Source of the DNA: Candidatus Anstonellaceae archaeon
GTDB lineage: Archaea > Micrarchaeota > Micrarchaeia > Anstonellales > Anstonellaceae
Assembly: GCA_038891035.1 (NCBI GenBank)
Contig: JAWAEW010000002.1
Coordinates: 22,476 to 86,475, forward strand
Length of the DNA: 64,000 nucleotides
Reading direction: 5' to 3'
Position 1 is the stretch's first letter. Each line of letters begins with the position of its first letter. The notes beneath the pieces are model-generated. The model was not told the DNA's origin, did no database searches, and was given only the letters and a program-made list of their open reading frames with translations. A program made the translations under genes and the position numbers. Positions 1,372 through 20,627 of this stretch are shown in pieces.

Positions 1372-1474
1372 GCCGACGAGGAGATTTGAACTCCTAAGCC
1401 CAAAAGGGCACTAGATTCCTCGCAGAATCTGAAGATCTCGAGTCTAGCGCATTACCAGATTCTGCCACGTCGGC
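1372..1474 (-). tRNA. tRNA-Ser (anticodon CGA) with ~20-nt intron at canonical 37/38 position
   Basis: Hand-folded from reverse complement: acceptor GCCGACG/CGTCGGC, 3-bp D-stem with 11-nt D-loop, anticodon stem CTAGA/TCTAG, loop CTCGAG[intron]A, long variable arm GCCC-TTTT-GGGC, T-arm AGGAG-TTCAAAT-CTCCT. No encoded CCA. Confidence 0.7.
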
Positions 1475-4480: not shown

Positions 4481-4481
4481 T

Positions 4482-6447: not shown

Positions 6448-7485
6448 TTATGCAAGCGCCCCGACAAAACCACCTATAACTGTTTTACAGATATAGAAGA
6501 TGAAAAGAGCAGCAAGTGCAAGTGGTGGAAAATATTTTAGTCCAAAAAGTAATTTCCCCTCCGCAATTACTCCTACTAAAATAGAAGTCAATATTGCTGT
6601 TCCTACAATGATCACTATGGTAAGATCATCGATAAATTTGATGTCAAGCTTAACCTTTGGCGTGGAAAAGCCACCTATCATGCTTTGGCTGGCACCAGTG
6701 CCGATATTAGACTGTATTTTGGTGAAAACTGCAAGAAATTGAGAAGAAATTGCAAGAAGCAGTGGCAATCCAAAAACCAATATGAAAACTATAAAAATTG
6801 CATAAGTCTTGGTATTGACAATCATTTGCTTTCGCAGTTCTTCTGTTTCTCTAATTTCTTCTGCCGAAGTCTCAAGTAGATAGGCCAGCTTTCCACCTGA
6901 GCGCAAGCCGTTCTCAAAAAACAAAATTGTCCGCCGCAGGATTGAACTGTCGATTGTAGCTGTTAGTTGGCGCAATGCATCTGCAAATGATTCGCTTCCT
7001 AAAGATAAGGATGAAACATAAAGGATTTCTGACTGCAGGGGTCCAAATTCAGGCCTTGCCGCGGCTTGAAATGCAGCAAAAGGGGTCATGCCAGAGCGCA
7101 TGTTTGCTGCCACCATCAAAAGAAAATCCGGAAGGACGGCGTCCACTCTTTGAGTTCTTTCAGTTATAAGATAATAAAGGTGCATATAGATCAAGATTGC
7201 AGCAGCCAAAGCAAAGAGAATGCCCAGCCCAAAGCTTATGACAAGTTTCCCAGCCAAGGTCGGCGGATTAAGGATGGGGTATGCAGATAGGTCAAAAAAA
7301 CGGAAAATGCTGACTGGAAGAAGAGCACCAACAATTCCAAATAAGATAACTATAAGAAGACGGGAGCCAAGCCAAAGTTCTGGATTTGTTTCTATGCCAG
7401 CATAAGCAAGAAGCTGCGAGATTTTGTCTTTTGGGCGTGGCTTGAAAAATGTTGAAAATCGTTTTTCAACTAAATATTTTTTCAT
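6448..7485 (-). CDS. type II secretion/type IV pilus platform protein, TadC/FlaJ-like (T2SSF domain)
   Basis: 345 aa polytopic membrane protein with a cytoplasmic T2SSF-like segment (LPDFLLMVAANMRSGMTPFAAFQAA...). Confidence 0.6.
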   Translation of the reverse strand: MKKYLVEKRFSTFFKPRPKDKISQLLAYAGIETNPELWLGSRLLIVILFGIVGALLPVSIFRFFDLSAYPILNPPTLAGKLVISFGLGILFALAAAILIYMHLYYLITERTQRVDAVLPDFLLMVAANMRSGMTPFAAFQAAARPEFGPLQSEILYVSSLSLGSESFADALRQLTATIDSSILRRTILFFENGLRSGGKLAYLLETSAEEIRETEELRKQMIVNTKTYAIFIVFILVFGLPLLLAISSQFLAVFTKIQSNIGTGASQSMIGGFSTPKVKLDIKFIDDLTIVIIVGTAILTSILVGVIAEGKLLFGLKYFPPLALAALFIFYICKTVIGGFVGALA

Positions 7486-7492
7486 AGAACCA

Positions 7493-8407
7493 CTAATCGC
7501 TAAACAGGCTTGGTCTTTTCATTTTGACGTAAGCAATGATGGCCATCTGACCTAAAAATCCAATTCCAACAACAGCTGAAAGAACTTCTGGTGTAACACC
7601 AAGCATCCCAAATACTGAAAAAATTACGAGGACGGTTGTTCCTATAGTAGGGAGTACGGCTGCAACCATCAGATATATCAGAATTATGAAGTTGAGTTCT
7701 GCATTGAATGATTTGAAAAGCGAAAACTGGTAGTCTACCAGCAATTTGACTATGCTTCGAAGGGTAGAGGACAGATTAGCGCCTGCTCTAATTGCAGTAA
7801 CGAGTTGCCATGAGACCTTTTTGAGATAGACCGACTGAGTCTTAATGGCCATATTTTCCAGTTCTTCTAAAAGAGGACTTCCTCCCCTAACGTTATTTGC
7901 AACTTCTTTAAATGCCGGCCCTACGTACTTGTAGTTTGAGTTTCCGATGTTTTCTATCGCATTGAAAAGCGGTATTCCAGAATTCACCTGTATTAGCATA
8001 TCACGCATGACAAAAATAAGCTCATGGTCTATCTTTGCTGCAATGCTCCTTGCAATAAGGCGAGGGAAAGCCAAATGAAGCAGAAGGAAAAAAAGAAAAC
8101 TGATTGCAAAAGAAAGGAATATTATAAGACCTTTAACAGGTGAAGGAAGAGTAGGGCTCAGCGTTGCAATTACGCCCACGACAATAGATATAAGTGCGGA
8201 CCAAATTGCGGCTGAAACTGCCGCAACTCCACAATAATATTCTGCCGGAAATTCAAGACCTATAGATCTTAGGTCATATCTTATTGATGGGTAAAATGCA
8301 AGGACTTTTAAGCCGATACCTTTCAGTCGCGCTCCTAAAGTGGGGACTGATGAGATTGGTAAAAGCATGACCGGAATGCGAACCGGCTGAGTTGTCATAA
8401 GAATCAC
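7493..8407 (-). CDS. type IV pilus platform protein, TadB/FlaJ-like (T2SSF domain)
   Basis: 304 aa membrane protein with a T2SSF-like segment (IFVMRDMLIQVNSGIPLFNAIENIG...). Separate gene, 8 nt from the downstream paralog. Confidence 0.6.
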   Translation of the reverse strand: MILMTTQPVRIPVMLLPISSVPTLGARLKGIGLKVLAFYPSIRYDLRSIGLEFPAEYYCGVAAVSAAIWSALISIVVGVIATLSPTLPSPVKGLIIFLSFAISFLFFLLLHLAFPRLIARSIAAKIDHELIFVMRDMLIQVNSGIPLFNAIENIGNSNYKYVGPAFKEVANNVRGGSPLLEELENMAIKTQSVYLKKVSWQLVTAIRAGANLSSTLRSIVKLLVDYQFSLFKSFNAELNFIILIYLMVAAVLPTIGTTVLVIFSVFGMLGVTPEVLSAVVGIGFLGQMAIIAYVKMKRPSLFSD

Positions 8408-8409
8408 GG

Positions 8410-10140
8410 CTATTTTTTACTTCCAATAGCTCGCTTGGCTATTTCTAAGATTTCATTTGGCTTGCTGTAATAAAGAGACATTATTCGGCCTACTGACTCC
8501 ATATCAGAAAGCTTGTTCTCAATCATCCATCTTATAATAGTGGCCCTGTTCTTTATATCTTGGTATATTTCCTCTTTGGTCATGCCTGTATGAAGGTTAA
8601 TTTCCTTGAGGTATTTGTTTGGCTCGCCTACCATTTCAAATGTATCAGTGCGTGGGCGCCATCTGTAAATTACATTGGTTGTTATTTCCTCGTCTTTGGC
8701 ACCTGGAACTATTTCGCAAATTTCCAAGGTTCTCCTAACATTCTTCCTCCTATCACGATATTGGACTACAATAAGGTTGACTGCTTCGAGGTCAGATGGA
8801 GGAAGGCTGATTGGGGGGCTAGTAAGCCTTCTTATAGCCTGCATCCCCGTATCAGCGTGCAAAGTTGCTGCAACAGAGTGGCCTGTGTGCATAGCCTCGA
8901 ACAATACTTCAGCTTCTCTTTGCCTTCTCATTTCACCAAGCAAGATTCTATCTGGCCGCATACGAAGCGAGGTAACCATCAAATCAAGCATTGTAACTTC
9001 ACCTAAGCCTTCTGCATTTGGATTTCGAGTTAAAAGAGGTACCCAGTTCCACTGGTAATGTGGCAGCATAAGCTCTCTGGTATCCTCTATTGTGACAATA
9101 CGCTGATTTGGAGGAATAAATGATGCCAGTGCGTTCAAAGCTGTAGTTTTTCCGGATGCTGTGCCGCCTGCAACTAAGATGTTCATTTCATAATGTATTG
9201 CCTGCCACAGCATTCCTGCCATTTCCGGTGTCATGGAGTAGCCTGGTTCACCCACAAGATTTACAATTGTCCATGGATTTCTTGCAAAGCGCCTAATTGT
9301 AATTGTGTTCCCATGTGCAGAAATCGGTGCAAGAGTAGAGCAAACTCTATCTCCGGTTTCAAGCCTAGCATCCAGTATTGGTGTTAAGTTTGCAATTTGT
9401 CTCCCAACTCGGCGTGCAATTTGGGAAGAATAATTGAAGATAGATTCTTCGTCTGGCATGTAAATATTTGACTTAAGCCAGCCAAACTTGCGATGATATA
9501 CTCCAATTGGGGTTTTTGAATTGTTAATAATAATTTCCTCAAGCCAGTCATCGTGGTTGATAATCTCTATCTCTCCTAACCCAAACAACTTATGCAAAAG
9601 CATTCCAACCAGAACTTCATCAACCTCCTTTCCGAGGTGGAACTGCCGAATATAATTGGTTATCGTAAGCTTGAATTCCTCGCGTGCTTTGGCTGCTTTT
9701 TCAATATCTGAAACATCAGACTGTGCACCGGCAGGTATTGCCCGCAAAAGTTCGTCTTTTATGAGGTCCAGAAAAATCTTGGTTGCAGTACCAAACTCAA
9801 CTAAGGTCAGGATATAGTGCTTTTCTCTTTCAGTATCTAATATCATTACACTTGCTGGCACTCCATCTGCTGAAAACATATAGCTGGCCAACACCTTTCC
9901 CTTTGTTGCACCGACTTCGGGCTTTGGTGGCTCAGCCGGCAGGATCCTGAAAGATACTGTTGGCTTTTCAGTTATGCTTAATGGGTAATGCAAATCTAAG
10001 ACCCCGCCCTTTTCAAGCACTGCACAGATAAGCTCAACGGTTTCTACCGGCATGTGTAGATATTTTGAGAGAATTTCAACACTGATATTTTTTTTGCGCT
10101 GTGCAAGTGAAACAAGCTGGTCTATCTTTGTCTCAAACAT
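8410..10140 (-). CDS. type IV pilus/archaellum-family assembly ATPase (FlaI/TadA/VirB11 superfamily)
   Basis: Walker A VAGGTASGKTT, Asp box IVTIEDTRE, His box, and an N-terminal extension, as in archaeal FlaI-like ATPases. Confidence 0.85.
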   Translation of the reverse strand: MFETKIDQLVSLAQRKKNISVEILSKYLHMPVETVELICAVLEKGGVLDLHYPLSITEKPTVSFRILPAEPPKPEVGATKGKVLASYMFSADGVPASVMILDTEREKHYILTLVEFGTATKIFLDLIKDELLRAIPAGAQSDVSDIEKAAKAREEFKLTITNYIRQFHLGKEVDEVLVGMLLHKLFGLGEIEIINHDDWLEEIIINNSKTPIGVYHRKFGWLKSNIYMPDEESIFNYSSQIARRVGRQIANLTPILDARLETGDRVCSTLAPISAHGNTITIRRFARNPWTIVNLVGEPGYSMTPEMAGMLWQAIHYEMNILVAGGTASGKTTALNALASFIPPNQRIVTIEDTRELMLPHYQWNWVPLLTRNPNAEGLGEVTMLDLMVTSLRMRPDRILLGEMRRQREAEVLFEAMHTGHSVAATLHADTGMQAIRRLTSPPISLPPSDLEAVNLIVVQYRDRRKNVRRTLEICEIVPGAKDEEITTNVIYRWRPRTDTFEMVGEPNKYLKEINLHTGMTKEEIYQDIKNRATIIRWMIENKLSDMESVGRIMSLYYSKPNEILEIAKRAIGSKK

Positions 10141-10436
10141 GAAGCAAAATCGCTTTTGAATTTATTAAACTTTCTTTCCTAGCAAAAATGAGGATACTTG
10201 ATGTTGCAGTGTTCTACGGGTGAAGTCGATTTTTGCGCAAAAGCAAAAAGAGCAGTGGTTGATTGAAAACTAGGCGCCGAGCTCGTATTTGCGCTTGTAA
10301 AGCTTAGCTCGCCGATAGTTTATGATTTTCATAACAGGAAATTACCTTTGCTTCATTTCAGAGGCGATTTGCAGCATACACTCAAAAGGCTTGAAAGCGA
10401 TATAGATTTAAGATAATCGGTGCAGATATAAACATC

Positions 10437-11696
10437 ATGAGAATGACTGCAAAAGCTACATTAGCTGGGATTGCAATTGCGGCATTAATTTCATTTCCTT
10501 CATCAAAATTGAACTCGCAAATAAATGAGAATCAGATAAAAAAGAAGTTAGCAGACAAAGTTCTTGTTGAAAATTCTTCAGCTTATACTACAGAAAAATA
10601 CAAAATCTACAAAGAAGGTGTAAATTTCGTACTTTTTCCACCAGATGTAAAAGTTGAAAAAATAGAACTAAAGGAAAGAAAAGATGAAAACAAAATAACT
10701 GCCTCCGACAATACAACTGGTGGAATGAGAATTATTTATGGGGATGCTTTTTGTCAAGCATTCGTACAAAAGATTATAGAAGATTCTTTAACTGGAGGAG
10801 GGGTAGGATGGATTTCGAAAATATACCCCCTTGATTCTTTTCCTTCACACAGAAACGGAATAAACCTATTTCCTCAAGGAAGGATCATAAAAAAGACCTA
10901 TCCAAGAATTCTAATGCCCCCAAATACGGATGGCCACTATATAGCTACTCGGACTTACTATATCGAAAATATCTGGCCTCCATACCATGACAGTGTAAAT
11001 GCATATTATCAGCAAATAGCATTAAACTTGATCTTTCAGCACGGGGATAGGCCAAGTGTTTTCTTCTTTGCAGGAGATAGGGATACTACTAAGAAGGCTA
11101 CTAAAATGATTATAATAAGTATAACGCAATTTGACTCTAATGGTGTTCAGATTGTGCCGCCGGATCCAAGAGTAAGAGGCCCCCCTGTAGCGGCTGCAGA
11201 AGTAGTAAGAGATGATCACATAAATGGAACGGGAGATTTTCGGGAGATAATAATGGCTATGGGGACACTGACAGATATGCAGATTTTGGCCGATGGTAAA
11301 ATTCTCGAAGAACAGGAATTTCAAATGTTTGGAGGGATGAATGAAGATACTCTCAATTCTTTTTTTGTTCGTCCTCCGATCAAAGCAAAAGAATTCGTGA
11401 TGGGAGTAGAGGAGAAATTTGAGCTGGTGAAAGAATATAGGCTTTCACAAAACTATCCAAATCCATTCAATTCACAGACAACAATTGAGTTTTCTTTACT
11501 CAGACCAGGACGCGTAGTGATTAGAGTGTATGATATGATTGGGAGGAGAATAGCAGAGATTGTTAATGAAGAATTAAAAGATGGGACTTATCGCGTCAAC
11601 TGGAAACCACAAGCAAGTATTTCAAGTGGTACGTACATCTATGAATTGAGCAGTGATGGCTATATCGACAGGAGAAAAATGATATATATAAAATAA
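10437..11696 (+). CDS. secreted protein with C-terminal T9SS-type (Por secretion tail) sorting domain
   Basis: N-terminal signal peptide. The C-terminal 80 aa, LSQNYPNPFNSQTTIEFSL...RVYDMIGRRIAEIVNEELKDGTYRVNWK...SGTYIYEL, matches the TIGR04183/Por_Secre_tail consensus closely. Confidence 0.6.
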   Translation: MRMTAKATLAGIAIAALISFPSSKLNSQINENQIKKKLADKVLVENSSAYTTEKYKIYKEGVNFVLFPPDVKVEKIELKERKDENKITASDNTTGGMRIIYGDAFCQAFVQKIIEDSLTGGGVGWISKIYPLDSFPSHRNGINLFPQGRIIKKTYPRILMPPNTDGHYIATRTYYIENIWPPYHDSVNAYYQQIALNLIFQHGDRPSVFFFAGDRDTTKKATKMIIISITQFDSNGVQIVPPDPRVRGPPVAAAEVVRDDHINGTGDFREIIMAMGTLTDMQILADGKILEEQEFQMFGGMNEDTLNSFFVRPPIKAKEFVMGVEEKFELVKEYRLSQNYPNPFNSQTTIEFSLLRPGRVVIRVYDMIGRRIAEIVNEELKDGTYRVNWKPQASISSGTYIYELSSDGYIDRRKMIYIK

Positions 11697-11709
11697 ATTT
11701 TTTCTTTAT

Positions 11710-14700
11710 TTAGGAGTTCAGTGTTGTAATGCTAACAGTAAAACCTTGGTTGTACAATGCACGTATTTCATCTTCTGAGAGTGCTCTTTTGAATATTTGG
11801 ACTTCATCGATTATGCCTTCATAAGGCTTATTGAGTGAAGGAGAATTTCCTATAATTAGTCTTGGGTAAGTCTGGCCCAGATCTCCTGAAACATCACCAG
11901 TTGCATAAAGTACTCCGTTAATGTAAATAAAGCCGACCCCATCTTTTCTGCTTACTGTGATATGGGTCCACTCGTCTGTGGCTAATTCGATGGGCGATGA
12001 TATTACTTTATTTGCTGCAATAAAGTTCAGATAACCATCTGACAACTCAAGGGCGAAGCCAGAATTCTGAATTTGGTTACTTATGATTTGGCTGGAGATT
12101 ACTGATTTGGGCTTAACCCATAAAGAAACTGTGAAATCATCTCTGCCCTGGAGCACAGGCGATGGGACCGAAAGATGGGAGAATAGAGATGTGAAGTTGT
12201 ATGCTCCACCTATTTTACCAAATGGAGTCCAGTTTGCTGAAACATTTGCATGAAGCAGAAGAGGAGAGTAATCAACCGATATTCCTTCTACTTCTCTATA
12301 ATCGAATGGCAATGAAAGTAGCGCATCAGGAAGCTGCCTTTTTAGGCGAAGCTTGGCATTATAATTTGCAGTAATATTGCTAAATGAAGCGGATGGCTTA
12401 TAAAAGACATCAAGGTCAAGGCTGCACTTGTCTTGATATAAGCCTTTGTAGTGATTTTCGATTTCCCGTTCAGATAGAGCTCTCTTATAGAACCTTATTT
12501 CATCAATCAGTCCTCTGAAACCGTTGCTTCCTGAACTATCAGATGCACCTATAAAGAATGGGGACGATGAGTTTATCCTCAAAAGGCTGAACTGACCTGA
12601 TGCAACCGATTTATCATCAAGATAGATGTTGTATTCGCCTAATCTTCTAACAGAAACTGACACCATATGCCAATTCCCATCTGATAAATCGAGTAGATGA
12701 CTTATCTGTGAAGACTGGCCACTTCCATTTGCACTATAAAATGAGATGTTGAGGAAATTAGCAGGATTCAAAAACCAATCAATCCCCTGTGCTGCCCCAA
12801 ATTCCTGTCCTAGCTGATAAAATAGCCTTGCAAAGCTTCCTTGGCCGGTATAAGGCCTTATCCATACAGACATAGTAAAATCATTGATCTCTGTAACTGA
12901 AACATCGTCTAGATAGACTACTTGGTTGTTTAGAGGTGTATAAAACCGAAGTTCAATGACTGCATTTTGAAGTGTAGAAAATGGTTGTGTGATCCTTTCA
13001 AAAGTAGTGCTTAGCTGCTTTGTGATAAATATGTCTGCACCGGGATTCAATGAATTCCACTGCCCGGAAGGCGCCAAGTACATTTGGTTTTGCACATCAA
13101 CAATTGCATATCTAATCGCATCATTTTGAAGCTCGCCTCTCGCCCAAAACTCAAGCAAATAATTCCTGTTTCCTTTCAGTGCTGAATAAAGAGCTGAACT
13201 GTAAATATACGACGAGGGATCGCTAGAGTAGATTTTAACTGAAGTCGAGCCTGACTTTACTATGTTGTGCTCTGGCTCAAATATGCCATTTCCTTGCTTT
13301 ATCCAATTGTTGAAAAGGAAGGATTGGCTGCCTACACCTGGAGGGATAATGCAGTACTTTACAGATCCGCTTGTTCTTGTTACATTGCACACTGCATTTG
13401 GATCACAGCAGGGATGAACATCGTCACAGCGAGAATTGGTTGGGAAGCAGGTTGTGCATCGCCCATAATCTTGTATTCCCTCAAAAAAGAAGGGAAGTTT
13501 TTTTATCTTGAAAAAGTAGTCGCGAGAATAGGTTTGCTGCTCTTGTTGTGCAACTGTATTTACAAGGTCACAGAAAAGCCCCTCGCAGCATTGCGTGTCA
13601 TTAGTGCAGAGGGCACCTTGCTGACCGCATGTAGGAAGAGGAGGCGCACATCTGAAGGTTTGTTCCCCGTCAAAAAGACACCTGTTTGAGCAGCATTCTG
13701 AGTGATTCCTACAGGTATGGTTGAGAGGAAGGCAGTCCACACACTTTGAGAAATTAGCAGAGGTGCTCAGTAGATCGCAAAGCCCGGAGCAACATTGACT
13801 GTTTTCAGTGCAATTGGTGGTGCTGTTCGTTTGAATGCAAACTGAGCATATCTTTTGGGATGAGCCTGCGGGTGCTGCACAAATACTGCATGTCTGCGGG
13901 CAGTCTGAAGAAATGGTGCAGCTCTGGTTGCATCCTATTCCGCATCGTGGTTGGCTTTCTTCATCTATAAAGCATCTACCACTGCAACATTCGTTGCTGG
14001 TTCCATCTTGGCAAGAGGCAAGTAACTGCCCATTTTGAAGGCAACAGATTCCGTTTAAACAGATTGAGGGGGGGCAACAAGGGATTTTGTTGTCTCCTGA
14101 ACACGGCTGGGAAGCATTTGCGCAATTTAGGTTTGTTAATTCAGCTACATTAGTAGGATTAGAACGATCAGACTTGGCAACAAGATTAGGATTGTTTTTG
14201 GCTTCTGCTTGTATGTATAATTGAACGCTTGTACCATTTTCAAACGTCGAAGTGTTCAATGGTTCTTGCTTACGATACAAAAACAAAATTGGTATTATGT
14301 TGCCCGGCCTCTGCGCAACAAAGACATATGAAATATTAATATATGGTGTGCTGTCAGGACAATTTTGTATGCAGTATACGTTGGACCCTCGAATAACAGT
14401 TGGTGTGGGTGAAATAATTGGAGTGGGTGGTTTTTTAGGTTTGCAAACTCCATTCTCGCATCTTAATCCTATCGTTTTATCGCTATCACAGCAATCAGAA
14501 TCCTTAGTACATTGTTGCCCTCCTTGTGAGCATGCAGAACACCTTCCATTAATGCAAACTGAATTCGAACAGCAATCAGAATCTCTGAGACAGCCATAAG
14601 TCCCACGTGGCCAGCAAGGAACACACTTGCCATCTCTCATCATATAGAACTTAACTGAGCTTGAAGACGGGATTGCAGACCATGGTTGGCGCTCCTCTTC

Positions 14701-15468
14701 ACCTAAAAGGCATTTGCCGGAACAGCATTCAGAATGATAAGAACAGTTTTGCCCATTAGGAATGCATGAACATATGCCATTTATGCACATGGAACTTATA
14801 CAGCAATCAGCATCTGAGCTGCAAGGCCCGTATCCTCTTGGCCAGCATGAAACACATGTACCATTGAGGGGAGTTTCGACGAGCTTTGCAAGCCCAGAAA
14901 AAAGATTTTCTGATGATAAAAACGCCCCACCATCATTGTTGGTGCGTATAAGACATTTGGAAGAGCAGCAATCATTATTTGATTGACAGACTGCACCTTG
15001 TCCTTTGCATGTGGATGTGCTATCCCAGTGACAACCCACTGCTACACATACAGTTTCGTTATAAATGGAAGTGCATGGTAGAGATGGCCCACTGCTTACA
15101 TCATCACATGGAAATGCTGTAAAAGCATTAAATCTGCAATACCCTCCTGCAATATTGCATGCACCAGCCGGATTGTGACTTTTAGAGGCACAGTCGGCTT
15201 CATTTAGAGAAGAACAGAGAGTTGGAGCTGTACCGCTTGCACATGTACAATTGTTTGTCACTAGCTCATATCTCAGATTGCAATATCCTCGCAATTCAAA
15301 TTCGTAGCAAACCGAGGGATAATCGATCGGACCGCATCCGTCGGATGTACACCATGGGTGATTTAGGGAAGTACAGCTTACGTTAGGAGAATTTTGGTTT
15401 TGCGGCACGCAGCCAGCAAAAATGGCTGAAGAAAGCAATCCAAACAGCAACAAAGACAACATTCTCAT
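11710..15468 (-). CDS. 1252-aa surface protein: lipobox signal, repeated knottin-like 6-Cys modules, Pro/Thr linker, two C-terminal LamG_3 (ConA-like lectin) domains
   Basis: MRMLSLLLFGLLSSAIFAGC lipobox. At least 6 repeats with the pattern C-x6-C-x5-CC-x4-C-x4-C (e.g. CWPRGTYGCLRDSDCCSNSVCINGRC). Two LamG_3 signature motifs (IDEIRFYKRALSEREI and IDEVQIFKRALSEDEI). Confidence 0.7.
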   Translation of the reverse strand: MRMLSLLLFGLLSSAIFAGCVPQNQNSPNVSCTSLNHPWCTSDGCGPIDYPSVCYEFELRGYCNLRYELVTNNCTCASGTAPTLCSSLNEADCASKSHNPAGACNIAGGYCRFNAFTAFPCDDVSSGPSLPCTSIYNETVCVAVGCHWDSTSTCKGQGAVCQSNNDCCSSKCLIRTNNDGGAFLSSENLFSGLAKLVETPLNGTCVSCWPRGYGPCSSDADCCISSMCINGICSCIPNGQNCSYHSECCSGKCLLGEEERQPWSAIPSSSSVKFYMMRDGKCVPCWPRGTYGCLRDSDCCSNSVCINGRCSACSQGGQQCTKDSDCCDSDKTIGLRCENGVCKPKKPPTPIISPTPTVIRGSNVYCIQNCPDSTPYINISYVFVAQRPGNIIPILFLYRKQEPLNTSTFENGTSVQLYIQAEAKNNPNLVAKSDRSNPTNVAELTNLNCANASQPCSGDNKIPCCPPSICLNGICCLQNGQLLASCQDGTSNECCSGRCFIDEESQPRCGIGCNQSCTISSDCPQTCSICAAPAGSSQKICSVCIQTNSTTNCTENSQCCSGLCDLLSTSANFSKCVDCLPLNHTCRNHSECCSNRCLFDGEQTFRCAPPLPTCGQQGALCTNDTQCCEGLFCDLVNTVAQQEQQTYSRDYFFKIKKLPFFFEGIQDYGRCTTCFPTNSRCDDVHPCCDPNAVCNVTRTSGSVKYCIIPPGVGSQSFLFNNWIKQGNGIFEPEHNIVKSGSTSVKIYSSDPSSYIYSSALYSALKGNRNYLLEFWARGELQNDAIRYAIVDVQNQMYLAPSGQWNSLNPGADIFITKQLSTTFERITQPFSTLQNAVIELRFYTPLNNQVVYLDDVSVTEINDFTMSVWIRPYTGQGSFARLFYQLGQEFGAAQGIDWFLNPANFLNISFYSANGSGQSSQISHLLDLSDGNWHMVSVSVRRLGEYNIYLDDKSVASGQFSLLRINSSSPFFIGASDSSGSNGFRGLIDEIRFYKRALSEREIENHYKGLYQDKCSLDLDVFYKPSASFSNITANYNAKLRLKRQLPDALLSLPFDYREVEGISVDYSPLLLHANVSANWTPFGKIGGAYNFTSLFSHLSVPSPVLQGRDDFTVSLWVKPKSVISSQIISNQIQNSGFALELSDGYLNFIAANKVISSPIELATDEWTHITVSRKDGVGFIYINGVLYATGDVSGDLGQTYPRLIIGNSPSLNKPYEGIIDEVQIFKRALSEDEIRALYNQGFTVSITTLNS

Positions 15469-15497
15469 ATAGATTCCTCTATAAAACTTCCCTTTAT

Positions 15498-16991
15498 CTA
15501 TCCGCTAGAGCCACCCACACTATAATATTGTTCAAACCCGCCGTTTAATCCTGAAGATTGCTTAAGTGAAACGGCATCATAAATCACGTCGCCGCTTTCT
15601 GCTGCAAAAAACTTCAAAGTAACTTCAGATGATCCAAGTGGAAGCAGGAATTCTTTAGTGATTCGGATAAAGTCAGAGTTGACACCTGTCTCGAATAGAT
15701 GTTCTGATGAATCCCAACTTCCGTCTGCTTGAAGGTATTTTCCCTTGCTTCTGTCAAAGATAGAGTATTTGCCGTTTTGGCCTTGCGAAAGAAACTGGAG
15801 TGTATAAAATGAGTTTTCGGATAAGTAAACATTTTGATAGATATAAAAATCAACACTTGCATAGCCTTGTGGATTGGAGATCTCTGCTGCCCAATTGTTT
15901 TGTATCAAAGCAGGGCCGATGTAAACATCTTCTGGGTAGTTGTTTTCAACCACCCATGAAGGCCAAATGTTTGGAGGAATTCCATTTCTATCTTCAAAAT
16001 CTCCGTTTGAAACAAGCTCTGAGCCTTGCGGAAAGATTATTTCTGTTTCGGTGAGTGAGAAGTTATTTCGGTACATGTATTGATTTCCTGTAAATTCCAT
16101 GCAGCCTTGGCTTTTGCAGGAAAGTTTGAAGAGGGGCGTGTTCTGTCCGCCTCCTACTGTAAAATCAAGGCCATAAAGAGAATAATCACGTACTTTCATA
16201 TTTGAAGCAGGCGAATCAAGCGGAAGTACAAGAGCTCCAGATGGGCTTTTCGTATAAGATATGGAAGTATAATTTCTTGAAAGCAATCCTGAGAAATTAG
16301 AAACAAACAGAAGAATTGTGCCATCAGGATATGAAATTTGCAAGGTTGCAATATGGTTTGACACCGGTGTATTGGTGAATCTTGTTTTTGTGCCGATATT
16401 ATCTACATATTTGAGATTATAATAGAGGTTGTCAGAACCTGCCTGACCACCAGAAACAGAAAAGGCACCGATGTTGGTTGCACTTTTTGAGCAGTTTACG
16501 GTGGCGTATATTGAGATGGGCTGCCAACCCAGAGGATGGTAATAAATTATCACATCGTTTGGGCCATCGTTGCTATAAAACAGACCTCCTGACTCTGAAA
16601 TATTCATAATAAATGCATTGCTTCCGTTTATCCAAGAAACCAAAATAGCTTCAACTCCGCTATTTCTCAGATTTTCAGGTAAGGTGGCTGCATACTCATA
16701 GAGATTTGCAATTGGATGGCCTTCTTTTTTGAATGGGAGGGTAGATGAAACTGTTAAATGTATAGAAGATTGGGTTTTTCTAATATCTGCCTTTGTCCCA
16801 AGTACAGCAGCAAGGTCAGAAGATACTTGTTCTTCTATCCTTGCAATTTCAGATGGCAAGAGTTCAGTAAATGCGGTTCTTTGGCTTTTTCGCCACTCCT
16901 GCGAAAATAGAGCCATTCCGATAAGCGTAATTGACAGAATTAGTATTGATATGGTAAAAGTGAAACCTTTCGGAAGCTTTCTTTTGGTCAT
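15498..16991 (-). CDS. pilin-like protein with class III-type signal peptide and CBM4_9-like carbohydrate-binding module
   Basis: N-terminus KRKLPKG|FTFTISILILSITLIGMALF fits the [KR]G-hydrophobic prepilin pattern. NGDFE and NGGFE motifs with an aromatic-rich beta region resemble CBM_4_9. Confidence 0.45.
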   Translation of the reverse strand: MTKRKLPKGFTFTISILILSITLIGMALFSQEWRKSQRTAFTELLPSEIARIEEQVSSDLAAVLGTKADIRKTQSSIHLTVSSTLPFKKEGHPIANLYEYAATLPENLRNSGVEAILVSWINGSNAFIMNISESGGLFYSNDGPNDVIIYYHPLGWQPISIYATVNCSKSATNIGAFSVSGGQAGSDNLYYNLKYVDNIGTKTRFTNTPVSNHIATLQISYPDGTILLFVSNFSGLLSRNYTSISYTKSPSGALVLPLDSPASNMKVRDYSLYGLDFTVGGGQNTPLFKLSCKSQGCMEFTGNQYMYRNNFSLTETEIIFPQGSELVSNGDFEDRNGIPPNIWPSWVVENNYPEDVYIGPALIQNNWAAEISNPQGYASVDFYIYQNVYLSENSFYTLQFLSQGQNGKYSIFDRSKGKYLQADGSWDSSEHLFETGVNSDFIRITKEFLLPLGSSEVTLKFFAAESGDVIYDAVSLKQSSGLNGGFEQYYSVGGSSG

Positions 16992-17049
16992 TGAACCTCA
17001 ACCCTTAAGATCGCAAAAAAAGCTTAATAAATTTCCTATGAATGCCATT

Positions 17050-18090
17050 TTATTTTCCACGATACCAGCCACGAATGATAACAAAACCATAATCATTTTG
17101 AAGCTGATTGGTATTTTTTGCAAATGGGACAGTTAGAGATTGGATCTCTCCACCTCCATACAGGCATCCAGGTCTGTTGACCATGTATAAAATATTTTCA
17201 GGATTGCTGTAAAGAAGCTGCACTTCTTGATGAGAAAGAACACGGTCGTAAAGGCGCACTTCATCCAAAATGCTGTCGCTGTTGAATCCTATTTGGAGAG
17301 GGTTGTTATTACTATTTGGTGCCATGGCAAAATCATCAGTGTCTGCCGCAGTTCCATCTACATAAAGAGTAGCCACTCCTTCTATATCAAAAGTTGCAAC
17401 GATGTGATGCCAGTTGCCATCAGCAATATATGGTCCCTCCAACCATGATTCATCAGATGAAAATATGTGGAAAAAGACGTTTCCTTCTTCAGTAATGCCA
17501 ACAGAATATTTTTCCTCAAATGAAAATAATAATTGTTGATTGCCAATATTTTGACTTTTAACCCATAGAGAGACTGAAAAACTTTCTTGCTCAAAAAGAG
17601 GAGAAAACTGAACTGTTCCGTATGTTGTAGAAGAGAAATGAATGGCCCCGCCCGCTTTCCCATTTTGGACAAATATAGGGGATCCGATTAAAATCCCAAA
17701 AAGTCTGTTTGGAGTGGAGTCATAGATGATCGAACCTGCCACTTCATCAAGCTTCCAATATCCTACAAGACCATCCGCAAGCTGATTGCTAAAACCAACC
17801 ACCTCTATGCAAATTGAAGGAGAAGTCGCACTTAACACCTCTCTTATGGAAGCCGTGGTCTGTGTTAGGTCTTGTGGAGGAGAGAGTAGGCCCTTTTTTG
17901 AAAGCACTGTTGCAACATCTTGTAAGTAAGTTCTCAAAAGCTGGGTTTTAAAGTCTGAATCTTGAGTGTTGCCATAGAAAGTAAAGGCAATAAAGGTGGC
18001 CAGTATAATCATGAATATTGAGATTGCTGCATCAAGACTGAGGAATACTCCCCTTAGCCTCGAGTTAGAGATTTTCATTTTTTCTTCCAT
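17050..18090 (-). CDS. pilin-like protein with C-terminal LamG_3 lectin domain
   Basis: N-terminus SRLRG|VFLSLDAAISIFMIILATF is pilin-like. C-terminal motif ILDEVRLYDRVLSHQEVQLLY is the LamG_3 signature. Confidence 0.55.
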   Translation of the reverse strand: MEEKMKISNSRLRGVFLSLDAAISIFMIILATFIAFTFYGNTQDSDFKTQLLRTYLQDVATVLSKKGLLSPPQDLTQTTASIREVLSATSPSICIEVVGFSNQLADGLVGYWKLDEVAGSIIYDSTPNRLFGILIGSPIFVQNGKAGGAIHFSSTTYGTVQFSPLFEQESFSVSLWVKSQNIGNQQLLFSFEEKYSVGITEEGNVFFHIFSSDESWLEGPYIADGNWHHIVATFDIEGVATLYVDGTAADTDDFAMAPNSNNNPLQIGFNSDSILDEVRLYDRVLSHQEVQLLYSNPENILYMVNRPGCLYGGGEIQSLTVPFAKNTNQLQNDYGFVIIRGWYRGK

Positions 18091-18596
18091 ATCTGAACCC
18101 GAACTCTGACAATCTTATCATCCAAAATTGCAAGCCTTTCAGCACTGGATATCTTGGAATTAGTATAATCAGGTTCTAACCCGAAAGAATAAAGCAAGCT
18201 GCCCGAATCTGCATCGATTACACTCAGATAAATATCGAATGGCCCTGCACCCATCTTTTCCTTTACCAAATCATAATATCCGTTCATGGGCGACAGTGCG
18301 GAAAGTTTAGATGGCGAAAGAACATTTCGTGATGAAGCAAAACCGAAAGCATTGGCTTTGAGAAAATCGTCATTTTCCCAATCAGAAGGAACTCCCGAAG
18401 AAAGCACAAACATATCTGATATCCCTACCAAAATAGTTTGCATATCATGCATCGATTGCTCTTCATAATATGAATTTGAAACTAAATTCCATGAAAAAAG
18501 AAAAATTGCAAGAGCTGCAACAAATATTGCAGACGATATTACAAGCTCTGTAGAAAGCATTTGGCCAAGTGTTGAAGAAAATTTGGATTTACCCAT
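18075..18596 (-). CDS. minor pilin-like protein
   Basis: 173 aa. N-terminus LGQMLSTELVISSAIFVAALAIF has G-Q-x-x-S-x-E followed by a hydrophobic helix. Confidence 0.4.
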   Translation of the reverse strand: MGKSKFSSTLGQMLSTELVISSAIFVAALAIFLFSWNLVSNSYYEEQSMHDMQTILVGISDMFVLSSGVPSDWENDDFLKANAFGFASSRNVLSPSKLSALSPMNGYYDLVKEKMGAGPFDIYLSVIDADSGSLLYSFGLEPDYTNSKISSAERLAILDDKIVRVRVQIWKKK

Positions 18597-18601
18597 ACTG
18601 C

Positions 18602-18994
18602 TTACGCCTCGTATATGTAAATGACATTATCCCTATTTTCTATTATTATTTGGGTGTTGAGTGGAACAGAAGAGGACTGAGTCATGTTTGTAGTCAGTGG
18701 AACGGAATAAAGGCCATTTGCTGAATATCGAACAGTTACAAATTGTCCTTTAACCGAAATATCAACTATATTTTCACTCGCTGTAGTTGAAAGGAAAATC
18801 TTTGTAGAATTTCCTCCGGCCGCAGCGCGGTTTATCGCAAGCGCCAATTTGTTTGCCACTGACCCAGCCTCGAGCAATTGCTTTTGTCTTTCCCATAAGG
18901 CCTGCAGATTCTGGTTTGCAATATAGATAATAAAAAGGATAAACGCCATTACTGCTGCAATCACAACCAATTCAACTGAAAGCTGTCCTTTCAT
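18602..18994 (-). CDS. archaeal type IV pilin (class III signal peptide)
   Basis: MKGQLSVELVVIAAVMAFILFIIY is the canonical KG|Q-x-S-x-E prepilin motif. 130 aa. Confidence 0.6.
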   Translation of the reverse strand: MKGQLSVELVVIAAVMAFILFIIYIANQNLQALWERQKQLLEAGSVANKLALAINRAAAGGNSTKIFLSTTASENIVDISVKGQFVTVRYSANGLYSVPLTTNMTQSSSVPLNTQIIIENRDNVIYIYEA

Positions 18995-18998
18995 ATTT

Positions 18999-19784
18999 TC
19001 AACCTATTTCAAAGCTTACAGGAACAATAAAAAACTCCTCCCTGCATTCTTGCACGCATGATGGATGGCGTAGTGAAGTATTTATTAATAGATTCCAATT
19101 ATAGACGCCTCCCGCATCAACTGAAGGTTGGAAGATGATACTAACGATTGCTCTGCTTCCAGCAGTTTGAAAAGATGAAGGAAAAATTGCAAGAGGAACT
19201 TTTTGATATTCATTGAAAGCTTGGATATTAATCTCCAAGTTATCAGAAGATGAAGGGATTATTTCCAGCGAAGCTGAAGAAGGTTGCCCTTTTTTGCCTT
19301 TATGATAAATTATGGAAGGCTGGATTTCAACCAGGCTTGCCCCAATAGATACATAAGAACCAAAGGAAATAACTTTGATTTGATAAGTTCCAGGCGAAGA
19401 AGGGAATACTCCAGAAAGAGGTGCTAGAGTGCTTGCAGAATAGTCTGAGCCAGCTACATGAAGGTTGATAATATTGTTTGAAAGCACCGAAAAATCTAGC
19501 GGTTTTCCAATATAGCTTTTTTTGAGAGAAAGATTCGCAGAAGGAGGGATTGTAATACTGACAATTTTAGTAGCTCCTTTTCCTTCTGCGTAAACACTAT
19601 CTGCCGCATTGGCAAGTGTTTGCACTGTCTCTTTTGCCAACTTGGCATCTTTCTGGACGCTAACATCAAACAAAAGATTCGAAGATAGGACCGTAAAAGT
19701 CAAAAGAATGAGAAGAAGAATGCCAAGAACCGAGATCAGCTCTGCAGACGCTTGGGCAGAGAGGACTTGGAAAAATCTATGCAT
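18999..19784 (-). CDS. pilin-like beta-rich protein, paralog of 19821-20576
   Basis: N-terminus LSAQASAELISVLGILLLIL is pilin-like. The body aligns with the neighbour (VYAEGKGATKIVSITIPP...KSYIGKP vs VYAQGAGASVIVEIFLPP...KTYIGKP). Confidence 0.45.
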   Translation of the reverse strand: MHRFFQVLSAQASAELISVLGILLLILLTFTVLSSNLLFDVSVQKDAKLAKETVQTLANAADSVYAEGKGATKIVSITIPPSANLSLKKSYIGKPLDFSVLSNNIINLHVAGSDYSASTLAPLSGVFPSSPGTYQIKVISFGSYVSIGASLVEIQPSIIYHKGKKGQPSSASLEIIPSSSDNLEINIQAFNEYQKVPLAIFPSSFQTAGSRAIVSIIFQPSVDAGGVYNWNLLINTSLRHPSCVQECREEFFIVPVSFEIG

Positions 19785-19820
19785 AGAGTAAGAATACAGA
19801 TTTTATTTTAAATTCTTTCA

Positions 19821-20576
19821 TTAGCGCACTTCTACAGTAACTGGAACCGTAAATGATTGGTTTCCTATTTCTGAGCTCACAAAAATTTCCATATTCAAAT
19901 TATAAATTCCCTCTGCGTTATTATTTGCGGCTATTGACACCAAAAACTGAGTGGGTTCGACCTGAAGCTCGCTGGAAGAGGGAGAAACGTTGATGGATAT
20001 ATCTGAGGGCACCCACGGTAAGTAAATAGATGCAAATGCTAAAGAAGAAATCTTCTTTTCCAGAACTATTGATTCGTTCCTGATTTCTCCCTTTGCCATG
20101 CTAACAAATACTGATGGTCTGCTGATAGAGGCGATATATGGCACAATGAACACTTGCCCTCCTTTTGAAAACAAGTACATTTTGTGGGAGCCGCTTTTAG
20201 TCGGAAAAGAACCGGCCAGATTTGCCTGTGTAGATGCAAAGATATCGCTTTGTCCTACTCGCATATTAATGGTCTTTGGGAGTATGAAGGATGAGACATT
20301 TGCAGGCTTGCCTATATATGTTTTGTTAGGATTAAAATCGATTGTCGGAGGTAGAAAAATTTCAACTATTACTGATGCTCCAGCTCCTTGCGCATAAACC
20401 GTATCTGCTGCAATTGCAAGTCTTCTTACTGAATCATAGGCAAGTTTTTCGTTCTTTTCAATTGAAGCTTCGGATAAAAATGAAAGAGAAAGAGACATGA
20501 ATATGAGAACAACTAAAAGTGAAATTCCCATTATAGTGATAAGTTCTGTTGCTACTTGGCCTATTTTGCTATGCAT
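19821..20576 (-). CDS. pilin-like beta-rich protein, paralog of 18999-19784; first gene of the pilus operon
   Basis: N-terminus KIGQVATELITIMGISLLVV is G-Q-x-x-T-E plus a hydrophobic helix. Paralogy as described for the neighbour. Confidence 0.45.
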   Translation of the reverse strand: MHSKIGQVATELITIMGISLLVVLIFMSLSLSFLSEASIEKNEKLAYDSVRRLAIAADTVYAQGAGASVIVEIFLPPTIDFNPNKTYIGKPANVSSFILPKTINMRVGQSDIFASTQANLAGSFPTKSGSHKMYLFSKGGQVFIVPYIASISRPSVFVSMAKGEIRNESIVLEKKISSLAFASIYLPWVPSDISINVSPSSSELQVEPTQFLVSIAANNNAEGIYNLNMEIFVSSEIGNQSFTVPVTVEVR

Positions 20577-20627
20577 GAGGTATTAGCGAAGCTGTCCTTT
20601 AAATAAATTGTAGCATATTTTAACTTC
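20577..20627. promoter_or_regulatory. 51-bp AT-rich divergent promoter region (TATA-like TTTAAATAAATT) between pilus operon and DNA ligase
   Basis: TTTAAATA lies about 25 nt upstream of the lig ATG, which implies a leaderless transcript. Its reverse complement supplies a TATA-like element about 30 nt upstream of the pilin ATG. Confidence 0.35.

Follow-up and report, generated by a model that had tools for sequence, protein, structure and literature searches.

A putative lectin-bearing adhesive pilus of the Epd/Tad kind encoded by a DPANN archaeon of the Micrarchaeota

We analyzed a 64-kb stretch of DNA (hereafter the window) from the genome of a very small, symbiotic archaeon of the Micrarchaeota (Ca. 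Anstonellaceae, DPANN), an organism with intron-containing tRNAs. A real gene cluster lies on the minus strand and runs from position 20576 to 6448 (Table 1). Its products are six proteins (P1 to P6) whose N-termini are conserved and of the class III (prepilin) type, a Cys-rich LamG protein of 1252 aa (P7), a VirB11/TadA-family ATPase, and two platform proteins with a single T2SSF domain each (PLa and PLb). The first-pass annotation of this DNA had announced ten co-directional genes, which is borne out and matched by identical calls on an independent Logan contig. Its own list, however, adds up to 11 genes when counted item by item, and its three short pilins are only two (P3 and P4). No further pilin-like ORF was found among the other ORFs of at least 25 aa. 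The gene order P1/2, P3, P4, P5, P6, ATPase, PLa, PLb is kept across DPANN. Compared with the related locus L002, identity is 46-66% for the pilin and adhesin genes and 81-92% for the ATPase and platform genes, a divergence that we take as a possible sign of surface exposure and rapid evolution.

Table 1. Features of the pilus cluster in the window. A slash marks the predicted cleavage site.
Feature	Position	Strand	Description
P1	19821-20576	-	251 aa; class III signal MHSKIG/QVATEL, long N-terminal helix, beta-rich body; paralogue of P2
P2	18999-19784	-	261 aa; class III signal LSA/QASAEL; AF2 model
P3	18602-18994	-	130 aa; short pilin; canonical Epd-type signal MKG/QLSVEL
P4	18075-18596	-	173 aa; short pilin-like protein, TLG/QMLSTEL
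P5	17050-18090	-	346 aa (342 aa probable, from Met at 18078); minor pilin, LRG/VFLSLD; LamG within globular domain
P5 LamG insertion module	17194-17778	-	residues ~105-299; Laminin_G_3
P6	15498-16991	-	497 aa; minor pilin, PKG/FTFTIS, +5 not acidic; C-terminal carbohydrate-binding-type jelly roll
P6 CBM4_9-like module	15552-16019	-	residues ~325-480; from Pfam matches of homologues and predicted fold
P7	11710-15468	-	1252 aa; Sec-type signal peptide, Cys-rich repeats, CBM-like module, two LamG domains
Interrupting ORF	10437-11696	+	419 aa; signal peptide and C-terminal T9SS type A sorting domain (Pfam Por_Secre_tail, 28.9 bits)
Intergenic region	10141-10436		296 nt; 5' of ATPase gene; sequence read directly
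Assembly ATPase	8410-10140	-	576 aa; VirB11/TadA/FlaI superfamily; T2SSE
PLa	7493-8407	-	304 aa; platform; one T2SSF domain; 5 predicted TM segments
PLb	6448-7485	-	345 aa; platform; one T2SSF domain; like C-terminal half of FlaJ

The spacing of the genes departs from the 0-30 nt originally given: from P1 to PLb we measured 36, 4 and 5 nt, an overlap, then 58, 29, 1569, 2, and 7 nt. The longest of these separates P7 from the ATPase gene and contains the plus-strand ORF of 419 aa, which divides the cluster into two transcription units. This ORF has homologues, is not found at the corresponding position in four other loci (L002, L005, L010, and L028), and probably lies outside the pilus machinery. 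Direct reading of the sequence revealed an A/T-rich TTTAATAAA element ~30 nt ahead of the ATPase ATG, a putative separate promoter for the ATPase unit.

Archaeal class III-type N-termini had been proposed for the pilins, and they are indeed present: the MKGQLSVEL of P3 is accompanied by five more, all conserved among orthologues (as [KR][GA]/Q[AST]S.E[LF] in those of P1). The cleavage motifs KGQL, IGQV, and SAQA have a Gln at +1 and a Glu at +5. In the AF2 models of P2 and P6 an N-terminal helix of 55-65 residues is followed by beta domains; in P2 the helix covers residues 2-67, a small beta domain spans 72-148, and residues 152-260 form a PapD/ASH/MSP-like Ig sandwich. No pilin of the window reaches the threshold of Pfam Class_IIIsignal, a model matched by some DPANN relatives. 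P1 and P2 are paralogous, as suggested (32% identity, E 2e-27), and members of the P1 family reach 360-1054 aa in other DPANN loci. Genes like P3 (~130 aa) are found 5' of the ATPase in 35 related loci, and no accessory pilin of the DPANN loci is more widely conserved than P4, which is of the G/Q.FS.D type (40 of the 52 loci with at least 4 kb upstream).

The claim that pilin-like proteins of this cluster carry LamG and CBM-type modules is supported by our analysis. P5 has the predicted Laminin_G_3 domain (Pfam, residues 155-291, E 2e-24). Its residues 11-104 match a short family of 140 aa (A5; hhalign 97.9%), and when residues 105-299 are left out the protein aligns end to end with this family (99.3%, E 4.7e-20), with both conserved Cys aligned. 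On these alignments, we regard P5 as one of the conserved DPANN minor pilins of ~140 aa, its globular fold interrupted by a LamG insert. Residues 6-229 of P6 are homologous to a DPANN pilin family of ~285 aa (A4; hhalign 98%, E 2.3e-13), its N-terminus GFTFT is almost invariant in 20 homologues, and its AF2 model has a helix (10-64) plus beta domains. The P6 of the window has no Pfam match of its own at E<=0.1, CBM_4_9 included, and the CBM_4_9 assignment made earlier holds only through homologues and predicted fold: nine of the 20 family members match CBM_4_9 (best 1e-17), and the C-terminal sandwich of the AF2 model matches CBM4, CBM16, and CBM22 in Foldseek (TM 0.6-0.73 on target). The module is also homologous to residues 754-860 of P7 (E 4e-6). 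Homology and model together describe P6 as a conserved ~285-aa minor pilin with a predicted C-terminal CBM.

The large protein P7 has 90 Cys within residues 20-706, followed by a CBM-like region (~700-860) and by LamG domains at ~870-1010 and 1097-1235, in agreement with the LamG initially noted (Laminin_G_3 twice, E 1.8e-50). Its description as a knottin-repeat lipoprotein was not confirmed, as the sole support for the knottins is a Dickkopf_N match below threshold (17.7 bits for a cut-off of 25) and the lipobox-like FAGC is not kept in orthologues (FARC, ASSC, ALNC). In two loci, L005 and L006, P6 and P7 form a single fused ORF (1081 and 1510 aa, respectively), and sizes of up to 3302 aa occur among relatives (L007, L064). 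P7 is a putative adhesin. VWA, LamG, FG-GAP, RTX, and CBM adhesion modules occur on class III proteins of other DPANN loci.

The ATPase belongs to the FlaI/TadA family, as proposed (T2SSE domain, E 7e-34). FlaI is its best NCBIfam model and TadA scores 174 bits, while its best matches in the PDB are afGspE (2OAP, 5e-67), FlaI (3e-56), and CpaF (4e-47). It is 42-93% identical to the ATPases of 80 DPANN loci, and 100% and 93% identical to those of Anstonellaceae/Micrarchaeota MAGs. An archaellum was rejected: the FlaI score is 292 bits for a cut-off of 550, and the neighbourhood has no flaB/F/G/H genes. PLb matches positions 270-552 of the 555 in the NCBIfam ArlJ/FlaJ profile. The two separate platform genes reported before are present, with one T2SSF domain each, but they are not an anomaly: two such genes define both Epd (EpdJ/EpdK) and bacterial Tad (TadB/TadC) systems (PMC4371748; PMC6668835), and the ATPase-PLa-PLb triad is found in 62 of the 66 related DPANN loci with enough sequence.

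In line with the first-pass annotation, the locus lacks a prepilin peptidase. We found no A24 peptidase anywhere in the window, where every ORF of at least 100 aa that has 3 or more TM segments either has another assignment or does not resemble a peptidase, nor any prepilin peptidase among the families listed (25 of 36) of multi-TM ORFs beside related loci. A major pilin was not found in the locus or in the window. A 'GQGTTEYLIILAV' pilin of ~150 aa lies 3' of the platform genes in 29 DPANN loci that are more distantly related; neither the window nor the closest relatives have it. The gene for the major pilin is probably located in another part of the genome. No secondary TadZ/FlaH-type ATPase adjoins the locus.

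The cluster had been left without assignment to a characterized pilus type. It can be assigned, as Epd/Tad-like, because its cleavage motifs and their Glu at +5 match those of the pilins that EppA processes (Epd pilins, KGQV/KGQL/KGQI; PMC4371748). This class would be set by the motifs and the two platform genes, not by the clade of the ATPase, whose best solved relative is afGspE. The Epd pili of Methanococcus maripaludis (clade 1 of Makarova 2016) comprise the ATPase EpdL, the platforms EpdJ and EpdK, and the pilins EpdA-E. They share with our locus a single VirB11-type ATPase, two separate platform genes, [KR][GA]/Q cleavage sites with Glu at +5, and a locus that holds several minor pilins while the major pilin is encoded elsewhere (in our case, probably). 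For Epd-type loci, large ConA-like/DUF2341 proteins were predicted as putative tip adhesins. Unlike in Epd, the ATPase comes first in the gene order, no EppA, FleN/MinD, or FlaH-like gene adjoins the locus, the pilin families are unrelated in sequence past the N-terminus, and the lectin domains are built into minor pilins. The bacterial Tad/Flp (type IVc) set (TadA/CpaF, TadB, TadC, Flp, TadE/F, TadV) likewise has an ATPase followed by two single-T2SSF platform genes, a fission product common to Epd-like systems (PMC6668835), and CpaF is a clear homologue of our ATPase. However, our locus has no secretin, TadZ, TadD/G, or TadV, its pilins are far larger than Flp, and the system is archaeal, with a single membrane. 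Such DPANN clusters have been named 'Tad pili' (PMC9563170).

Grafted binding modules have parallels in modular bacterial type IV pilins such as Streptococcus sanguinis PilC (ConA-like lectin module) and PilB (vWA module) and in PF13385-pilin architectures. They also combine an N-terminal pilin module with a binding module (LamG/PF13385, CBM, VWA) predicted to mediate tip adhesion to glycans or proteins, but they have the IPR012902 motif instead of an archaeal class III signal, and their modules are appended past a linker and not inside the pilin fold like the LamG of P5. GspK, the capping minor pseudopilin of the T2SS, is the largest of the minor pilins, has no Glu at +5, and carries an additional domain within its pilin beta-sheet (PMC8179133); P6 resembles it in lacking an acidic +5 and P5 in its inserted domain, although there is no sequence relationship and the GspK insert is alpha-helical, not a lectin. 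Within the same phylum, the accessible part of the report on Mia14 ('Ca. Mancarchaeum acidiphilum', Golyshina 2017; PMC5498576) gives two T4P systems, with one of them placed in the Methanococci/Thermococci group, a single FlaK-like peptidase encoded away from the pilus loci, and LamG-like genes linked to these loci (MIA14_0170-0177, compared by description only); that part describes the LamG proteins neither as pilins nor with an insertion or fusion architecture.

The novelty of the cluster was overstated at first, because Tad-like clusters of DPANN (PMC9563170; PMC6393860) and, in the accessible part of its source, the link between LamG genes and type IV pilus loci in Mia14 (PMC5498576) were already published. 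Bacterial lectin-modular pilins, in which the tip of the pilus bears PF13385 or lectin modules, were known as well (PMC8179133). New in detail are the LamG inserted inside the P5 fold, the predicted C-terminal CBM of P6, and the fusion of P6 and P7 in relatives.

That the cluster is a type IV pilus-like operon, and its carrier a host-associated archaeon, is supported. We think it probable that it encodes a lectin-bearing, adhesive Epd/Tad-like pilus; judging from sequence, an adhesive pilus with lectin-bearing tip subunits is the most likely function, and the locus is a good candidate for a host-attachment device. In such a system, P1-P6 would enter the membrane as prepilin-like proteins, and an A24 prepilin peptidase, with its gene at another site in the genome, would cut them behind the conserved Gly/Ala. 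The ATPase, as a hexamer, would drive a heterodimeric platform of two half-size T2SSF proteins, presumably split by an ancient gene fission, and pilins would be pulled from the membrane to build a helical fibre, with their N-terminal helices holding it together. P3-P6, which are conserved DPANN minor pilins, perhaps together with P1 and P2, would most likely prime assembly and finish at the pilus tip. Two minor pilins may have become adhesins in this lineage, P5 by its LamG insert and P6 by its C-terminal CBM4_9-type module, and P7 would be a separately secreted partner of P6 that in relatives is its C-terminal extension. With LamG or CBM modules on P5, P6, and P7, the pilus would thus present several putative glycan-binding modules, and their targets would most plausibly be host cell-surface glycans or biofilm matrix.

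That P5, P6, and P7 are glycan-binding proteins secreted in the ordinary way and encoded beside a pilus operon, with only an apparent pilin fusion, or that the locus is an archaellum remnant, is hard to credit. The missing Class_IIIsignal matches, the normal Sec-type signal of P7, and the rank of FlaI among the ATPase's NCBIfam models point this way, but the N-terminal parts of P5 and P6 are homologous (profile-profile) to short pilin-like proteins that dozens of loci conserve in this position, the [KR]G/hydrophobic N-termini are invariant, P6-P7 fusions exist, and the low FlaI score and missing fla genes speak against an archaellum. In Sulfolobus, class III signal peptides direct sugar-binding proteins to the bindosome (BasEF/BasABC), whose subunits are mentioned in PMC4371748 and which also uses a T4P-like ATPase and platform. 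This is a precedent for a short pseudopilus or bindosome-like display (or T2SS-like secretion) in which a P1-P4 stalk would anchor P5 and P6 (and P7) near the surface with no long fibre. The lack of a major pilin gene in the locus and window, the 'minor pilin' type and size of all six class III proteins, and a weak NCBIfam similarity of P2 to BasB (E 0.0046) and of the ATPase to BasE (154 bits) favour this arrangement. We nevertheless consider it unlikely: the BasB and BasE scores are far under their cut-offs (230 and 1000 bits), the bindosome has a single platform gene and its substrates are ABC-transporter binding proteins, unlike P5 and P6, more distant DPANN loci that share this machinery and these minor pilins carry a conserved ~150-aa pilin resembling a major subunit, and pili-like connections are reported for ARMAN/Micrarchaeota in the accessible part of PMC5498576.

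The adhesive pilus that we favour could be confused with one serving primarily DNA uptake (competence), with lectin modules in a secondary role. Epd-type signal motifs and two platform genes would suit such a pilus, Epd pili are needed for natural transformation in Methanococcus maripaludis (the epd genes were tied to it by transposon mutagenesis; PMC10133366), and DNA import via pili was speculated for DPANN (PMC9563170; PMC5498576), as far as the accessible text of these sources goes. Yet, the locus has no DNA-binding or ComEC/ComEA-like gene, and the lineage-specific additions are all of carbohydrate-binding or adhesion type, which makes a primary role in DNA uptake decidedly improbable. 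DNA uptake and adhesion are compatible with each other.

All ten pilus genes called in the window are on the minus strand, with transcription running from 20576 to 6448, and an independent Logan assembly contig yields the same ten gene calls. They encode six pilin-like proteins (P1-P6), a large Cys-rich protein with LamG domains (P7), an assembly ATPase, and two platform proteins (PLa and PLb). The cluster is flanked by genes for a DNA ligase and a threonyl-tRNA synthetase; ArgG and similar genes are among the other neighbours, and the window also has intron-bearing tRNAs, which mark it as archaeal. The first-pass annotation had described ten co-directional genes separated by gaps of 0-30 nt. 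The common orientation stands, but a plus-strand ORF interrupts the run, and the gaps measure 36, 4, 5, an overlap, 58, 29, 1569, 2, and 7 nt. The interrupting ORF lies between P7 and the ATPase, in the gap of 1569 nt. Since P7 abuts the ATPase in the closest of the related DPANN loci (L002, L005, L010, and L028), where the ORF is not found at that position, it is an insertion specific to this lineage, dividing the cluster into two units. Reading the sequence directly, we found an A/T-rich element before the start codon of the ATPase, which may act as a promoter.

Features of the pilus cluster and its surroundings in the window (in the N-terminal motifs conserved among orthologues, the bar precedes position +1)
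Feature	Position	Strand	Length	Motif or description
P1	19821-20576	-	251 aa	[KR][GA]|Q[AST]S.E[LF]
P2	18999-19784	-	261 aa	[KR][GA]|Q[AST]S.E[LF]
P3	18602-18994	-	130 aa	[KR][GA]|Q[LIV]S[VI]E
P4	18075-18596	-	173 aa	[KR]G|Q.[FW]S.[DE]
P5	17050-18090	-	346 aa	[KR]G|[VF]F[LV]S[LF]D
P6	15498-16991	-	497 aa	[KR]G|FTFT[IL]S
P7	11710-15468	-	1252 aa	
Interrupting ORF	10437-11696	+	419 aa	Signal peptide and C-terminal T9SS type A sorting domain (Por_Secre_tail, 28.9 bits)
ATPase	8410-10140	-	576 aa	
PLa	7493-8407	-	304 aa	
PLb	6448-7485	-	345 aa	
DNA ligase	20628-22370	+		
Threonyl-tRNA synthetase	4482-6380	-		
8-TM protein	3545-4531	-		
ORF antisense to ligase start	20561-20824		87 aa	
Restriction endonuclease-like protein	23009-23851	+		ATP-cone, Mrr_cat-type restriction endonuclease domain and AF1548-like C-terminal domain
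tRNA gene	1371-1474	-		
tRNA gene	31794-31894	-		
tRNA gene	38157-38256	-		

The ATPase carries a T2SSE domain (Pfam, E 7e-34). On the NCBIfam models, it scores 174 bits for TadA and 292 bits for FlaI, whose cut-off is 550, and its best solved relatives in a PDB search are the Archaeoglobus GspE (2OAP, 5e-67), FlaI (3e-56), and the Tad ATPase CpaF (4e-47). A "Candidatus Anstonellaceae" MAG has an identical ATPase (100%), a Micrarchaeota MAG has one at 93% identity, and relatives at 42-80% identity occur across DPANN (Micrarchaeota, Iainarchaeota, Woese-, Aenigm-, and Altiarchaeota). PLa and PLb have a single T2SSF domain each (Pfam, residues 135-256 and 121-246, respectively), and the similarity of PLb to FlaJ is confined to the C-terminal half of the latter (NCBIfam). 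We detected no similarity between the two by BLASTP, and PDB sequence searches with either gave no match even at E<=1. Two half-size platform genes define Epd pili (EpdJ/EpdK; PMC4371748). Bacterial Tad systems (TadB/TadC) are built likewise, the split platform being explained by gene fission of the two-domain FlaJ/PilC type (PMC6668835), and two tadC-like genes occur in many archaeal systems of clades 1 and 2 (PMC4858521). The ATPase-PLa-PLb triad is present in 62 of the 66 related DPANN loci with enough downstream sequence to score it. Hence, the split platform, initially regarded as unusual, is the norm for such systems. Judging from gene content and the PDB and NCBIfam scores, the locus, with its VirB11/TadA-family assembly ATPase and two adjacent single-T2SSF platform genes, probably belongs to the Epd-like/Tad-like two-platform archaeal pili. 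One Micrarchaeota contig (L050, 56-2950 and 9377-13700) carries two paralogous sets of the triad. Some loci with this DPANN-type system (L023, L066, and L077) are titled Thaumarchaeota, Falkowbacteria, or Methanosarcinales; such odd titles probably reflect binning errors.

Class III-type N-termini are found in all six upstream proteins and are kept in their orthologues. A Gln at +1 and a Glu at +5 are the signature of EppA-processed Epd pilins, with sites KGQV, KGQL, KGQI, and RAQI (PMC4371748). Prepilins with this EppA-type class III signal (DUF361) are present in the window, where the sites read IG|QVATE in P1, SA|QASAE in P2, and KG|QLSVE in P3; in P4 (G|QMLSTE) the Glu is at +6. At the level of the Pfam model (Class_IIIsignal, PF04021, DUF361), three DPANN relatives are recognized, but the window proteins themselves are not. 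In the AlphaFold2 model of P2 (pLDDT 85.8), residues 2-67 form a helix that precedes a small beta domain and an Ig sandwich of the PapD/ASH/MSP-like kind. In that of P6 (pLDDT 75.4), the helix spans residues 10-64 and is accompanied by beta domains and a C-terminal sandwich predicted with confidence; both models agree with a pilin architecture. P1 and P2 are paralogues. Three short pilins had been announced, of which we found two, with no third at a 25-aa ORF threshold. An 87-aa ORF considered for this role is antisense to the start of the ligase gene and is not pilin-like. No further Epd-type pilins were found elsewhere in the 64 kb. N-glycosylation sequons are modestly enriched in P1 and P7 only, which is uninformative.

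All ORFs of 80 related DPANN loci, found by ATPase similarity, were scanned for class III motifs with a hydrophobic stretch after them. The synteny comparison, suggested as a check in the first-pass annotation, revealed a recurring order of pilins followed by machinery: a large P1/2-type protein, then P3 (~130 aa), P4 (~170 aa), P5 (~140 aa), and P6 (~285 aa) types, the ATPase, PLa, and PLb. Relative to L002, identity is 46-66% for the pilin and adhesin genes, 81-92% for the ATPase and platform genes, and 73-83% for the flanking genes. The low values of the pilins and adhesins are as expected for exposed, fast-evolving recognition proteins.

The window has no candidate for a short major pilin. 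In 29 more distant DPANN loci, a ~150-aa pilin follows the platform genes, ~3.7-4 kb downstream of the ATPase start (L023, L026, L027, L029, L031, L034, L042, L045, and others; for example, L027:13765-14238), in two to three tandem copies at L063, L029, and L032. Its N-terminus is nearly invariant ('G|QGTTEYLIILAV...' or [KR]G|QGTTEYLIILAVIIVIALVVVGV). It probably serves as the major pilin of the Tad/Epd-like pilus in DPANN. Neither the window nor the closest Micrarchaeota loci contain it. This leaves room for the main rival explanation, in which the locus encodes a short pseudopilus or a bindosome-like display system. The bindosome (Bas) itself was rejected, with 154 bits for BasE against 1000, 16.9 bits for BasB against 230, and no SBP domains. 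The missing gene is also compatible with membership among Epd-like systems, since the Epd major pilin is likewise encoded away from its locus (PMC4858521). An archaellum, which the presence of adjacent fla accessory genes would have indicated, is excluded because none lie nearby; the FlaI score does not reach the cut-off, the platform is divided between two genes, and the combination of a FlaI equivalog, a single two-domain FlaJ, archaellins, and neighbouring FlaF/G/H is not found. DNA uptake by the pilus is a further possibility, one that is compatible with adhesion.

The presence of LamG on a pilin-like protein is borne out by the Laminin_G_3 domain of P5 (Pfam, E 2e-24). The first 104 residues of P5 match the short P5-type family of DPANN (hhalign, 97.9%). 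When residues 105-299 are excised, P5 aligns end to end with this family (99.3%, E 4.7e-20), with both conserved cysteines in register, which implies that the LamG domain is an insertion inside the globular pilin fold and not a terminal fusion. For P6, the match to the short P6-type family covers residues 6-229 (98%, E 2.3e-13). The CBM_4_9 module attributed to P6 was recovered in 9 of 20 homologues (best 1e-17), and the fold is CBM4/16/22-like, but P6 itself has no Pfam match at E<=0.1 and does not pass the gathering threshold of PF02018. Since homologues match PF02018 and the fold agrees, we regard the P6 module as a divergent member of the CBM4_9 type, and the sequence and model suggest that its C-terminus works like, or descends from, such a module. 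LamG domains replace it in two P6 homologues. Both P5 and P6 thus combine an N-terminal prepilin signal, an alpha1 helix, and a pilin-type globular part with a domain that is not pilus-specific (LamG in P5; CBM_4_9, at family level and by fold, in P6).

P7 has two LamG domains (Pfam), a CBM-like module related to that of P6 (E 4e-6), and 90 cysteines in residues 20-706. Its description as a knottin-repeat lipoprotein did not survive: the sole support for knottins is a sub-threshold Dickkopf_N match, and the lipobox-like FAGC is not kept in orthologues. P6 and P7 form a single ORF, encoding a class III protein, in L005:6719-9964 (1081 aa) and L006:31-4563 (>1510 aa), and P7-like proteins reach 3217-3302 aa in L007:31-9939 and L064:152-9805. 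This Rosetta-stone fusion argues that P7 functions with, or on, the P6 pilin. Matches of P5 and P7 to TafC (NCBIfam), a Tat-dependent haloarchaeal fimbria subunit, reflect LamG similarity only, are far below the cut-off, and indicate no relationship between the systems. Large class III proteins beside DPANN ATPases carry VWA, LamG, FG-GAP, RTX (HemolysinCabind), MG2, Big_7, and CBM_4_9 domains, a variety that parallels the diversity of bacterial modular pilins.

DPANN archaea need physical attachment to host cells and, to our knowledge, their host-recognising molecules are mostly unknown. The locus and its 80 relatives supply, as a set, five or six conserved pilin genes. Two of these are scaffolds for lectin or other adhesion modules and diverge much faster than the machinery. 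It is possible, and we propose it tentatively, that across DPANN the P5-type (KG|F.xSLD, ~140 aa) and P6-type (KG|F.xS.S, ~285 aa) minor pilins are plug-in carriers of host-recognition modules, in which lineages insert or append LamG, CBM, VWA, and other domains, or gain giant adhesins by P6-P7 fusion and fission. If so, the pilus tip would be a fast-evolving determinant of the hosts to which an ectosymbiont can attach, LamG within the P5 fold would be an architecture undescribed for any pilin, and the modules could serve to read, and to test, which hosts uncultivated DPANN are specific for. The LamG domain of P5, the CBM of P6, and P7 are defined domains for expression and host-glycan tests. 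Modular pilins that bear lectins are already established for bacteria (PMC8179133), and the principle would here extend to archaea.

Several of these elements have precedents. Tad-like clusters (TadA/B/C) have been described in DPANN, where the pilins could not be annotated (PMC9563170), and a DPANN "dark matter" island was figured with FlaI, TadC, TadB, and predicted pilins (PMC6393860). Clade 1 loci were predicted to encode large ConA-like proteins as putative tip adhesins (PMC4858521). The Micrarchaeon Mia14 is reported to have two type IV pilus systems, one of the Methanococci/Thermococci type, together with an expansion of LamG-like genes, "some of them linked to type IV pili loci" (PMC5498576). 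Hence, the machinery and its linkage to LamG in Micrarchaeota are already published, and the advance is one of detail, not of kind. In a limited literature search, we found neither LamG/CBM proteins presented as derivatives of two conserved DPANN minor pilins, nor the P5 insertion architecture, nor P6-P7 fusion or fission.

In line with the first reading, no prepilin peptidase was found in the 64-kb window (TM counts, a scan for the GxGD motif, and Pfam on every multi-TM ORF). Near the related loci, no A24 peptidase was found either, by a G.[GA]D.[KR] scan and by Pfam on 48 multi-TM ORFs (among the 25 of 36 families listed). The Mia14 report gives a single FlaK-like peptidase, unlinked to the pilus loci (PMC5498576). 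An 8-TM protein of the window was rejected as a candidate: it has no Pfam match, the motif is wrong, and its N-terminal 'IDHLRGIF' is acyltransferase-like. The steps that follow are drawn from type IV filament biology and kept apart from what was observed, namely the gene set, motifs, homologies, grafts, and fusions. An A24 peptidase encoded away from the locus would cleave the prepilins, which the ATPase and a PLa/PLb heterodimer would assemble. The conserved minor pilins would prime the fibre and remain at its tip, which P6 may cap; GspK, like P6, is without an acidic +5 residue. Glycans, most plausibly those of the host envelope, would be the ligands of the LamG and CBM modules and of P7.

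Other genes of the region deserve mention. The 8-TM protein is kept after the threonyl-tRNA synthetase in L001, L002, L009, and L028, and its 'IDHLRGIF' resembles acyltransferase-3/DUF1624-type membrane acyltransferases. The interrupting ORF is convergent with P7, their stop codons lying 13 nt apart. Its full-length homologues are confined to two Micrarchaeota MAGs, one at 97% identity and one at 33% identity, the latter elsewhere on the L002 contig; otherwise only its last ~90 aa find matches, to thousands of T9SS cargo proteins of Ignavibacteria, Bacteroidota, and Chlorobi (45-52% identity). By sequence, it looks like a bacterial domain acquired by an archaeon, and we know of no T9SS in the organism that carries it. 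Two genes beyond the pilus cluster, an ATP-cone, a restriction endonuclease domain, and an AF1548-like domain are joined in one protein. Finally, Rfam alone detects three tRNA genes (100-104 nt) that ARAGORN misses, presumably because they have introns at non-canonical positions, which are common in DPANN and other archaea.
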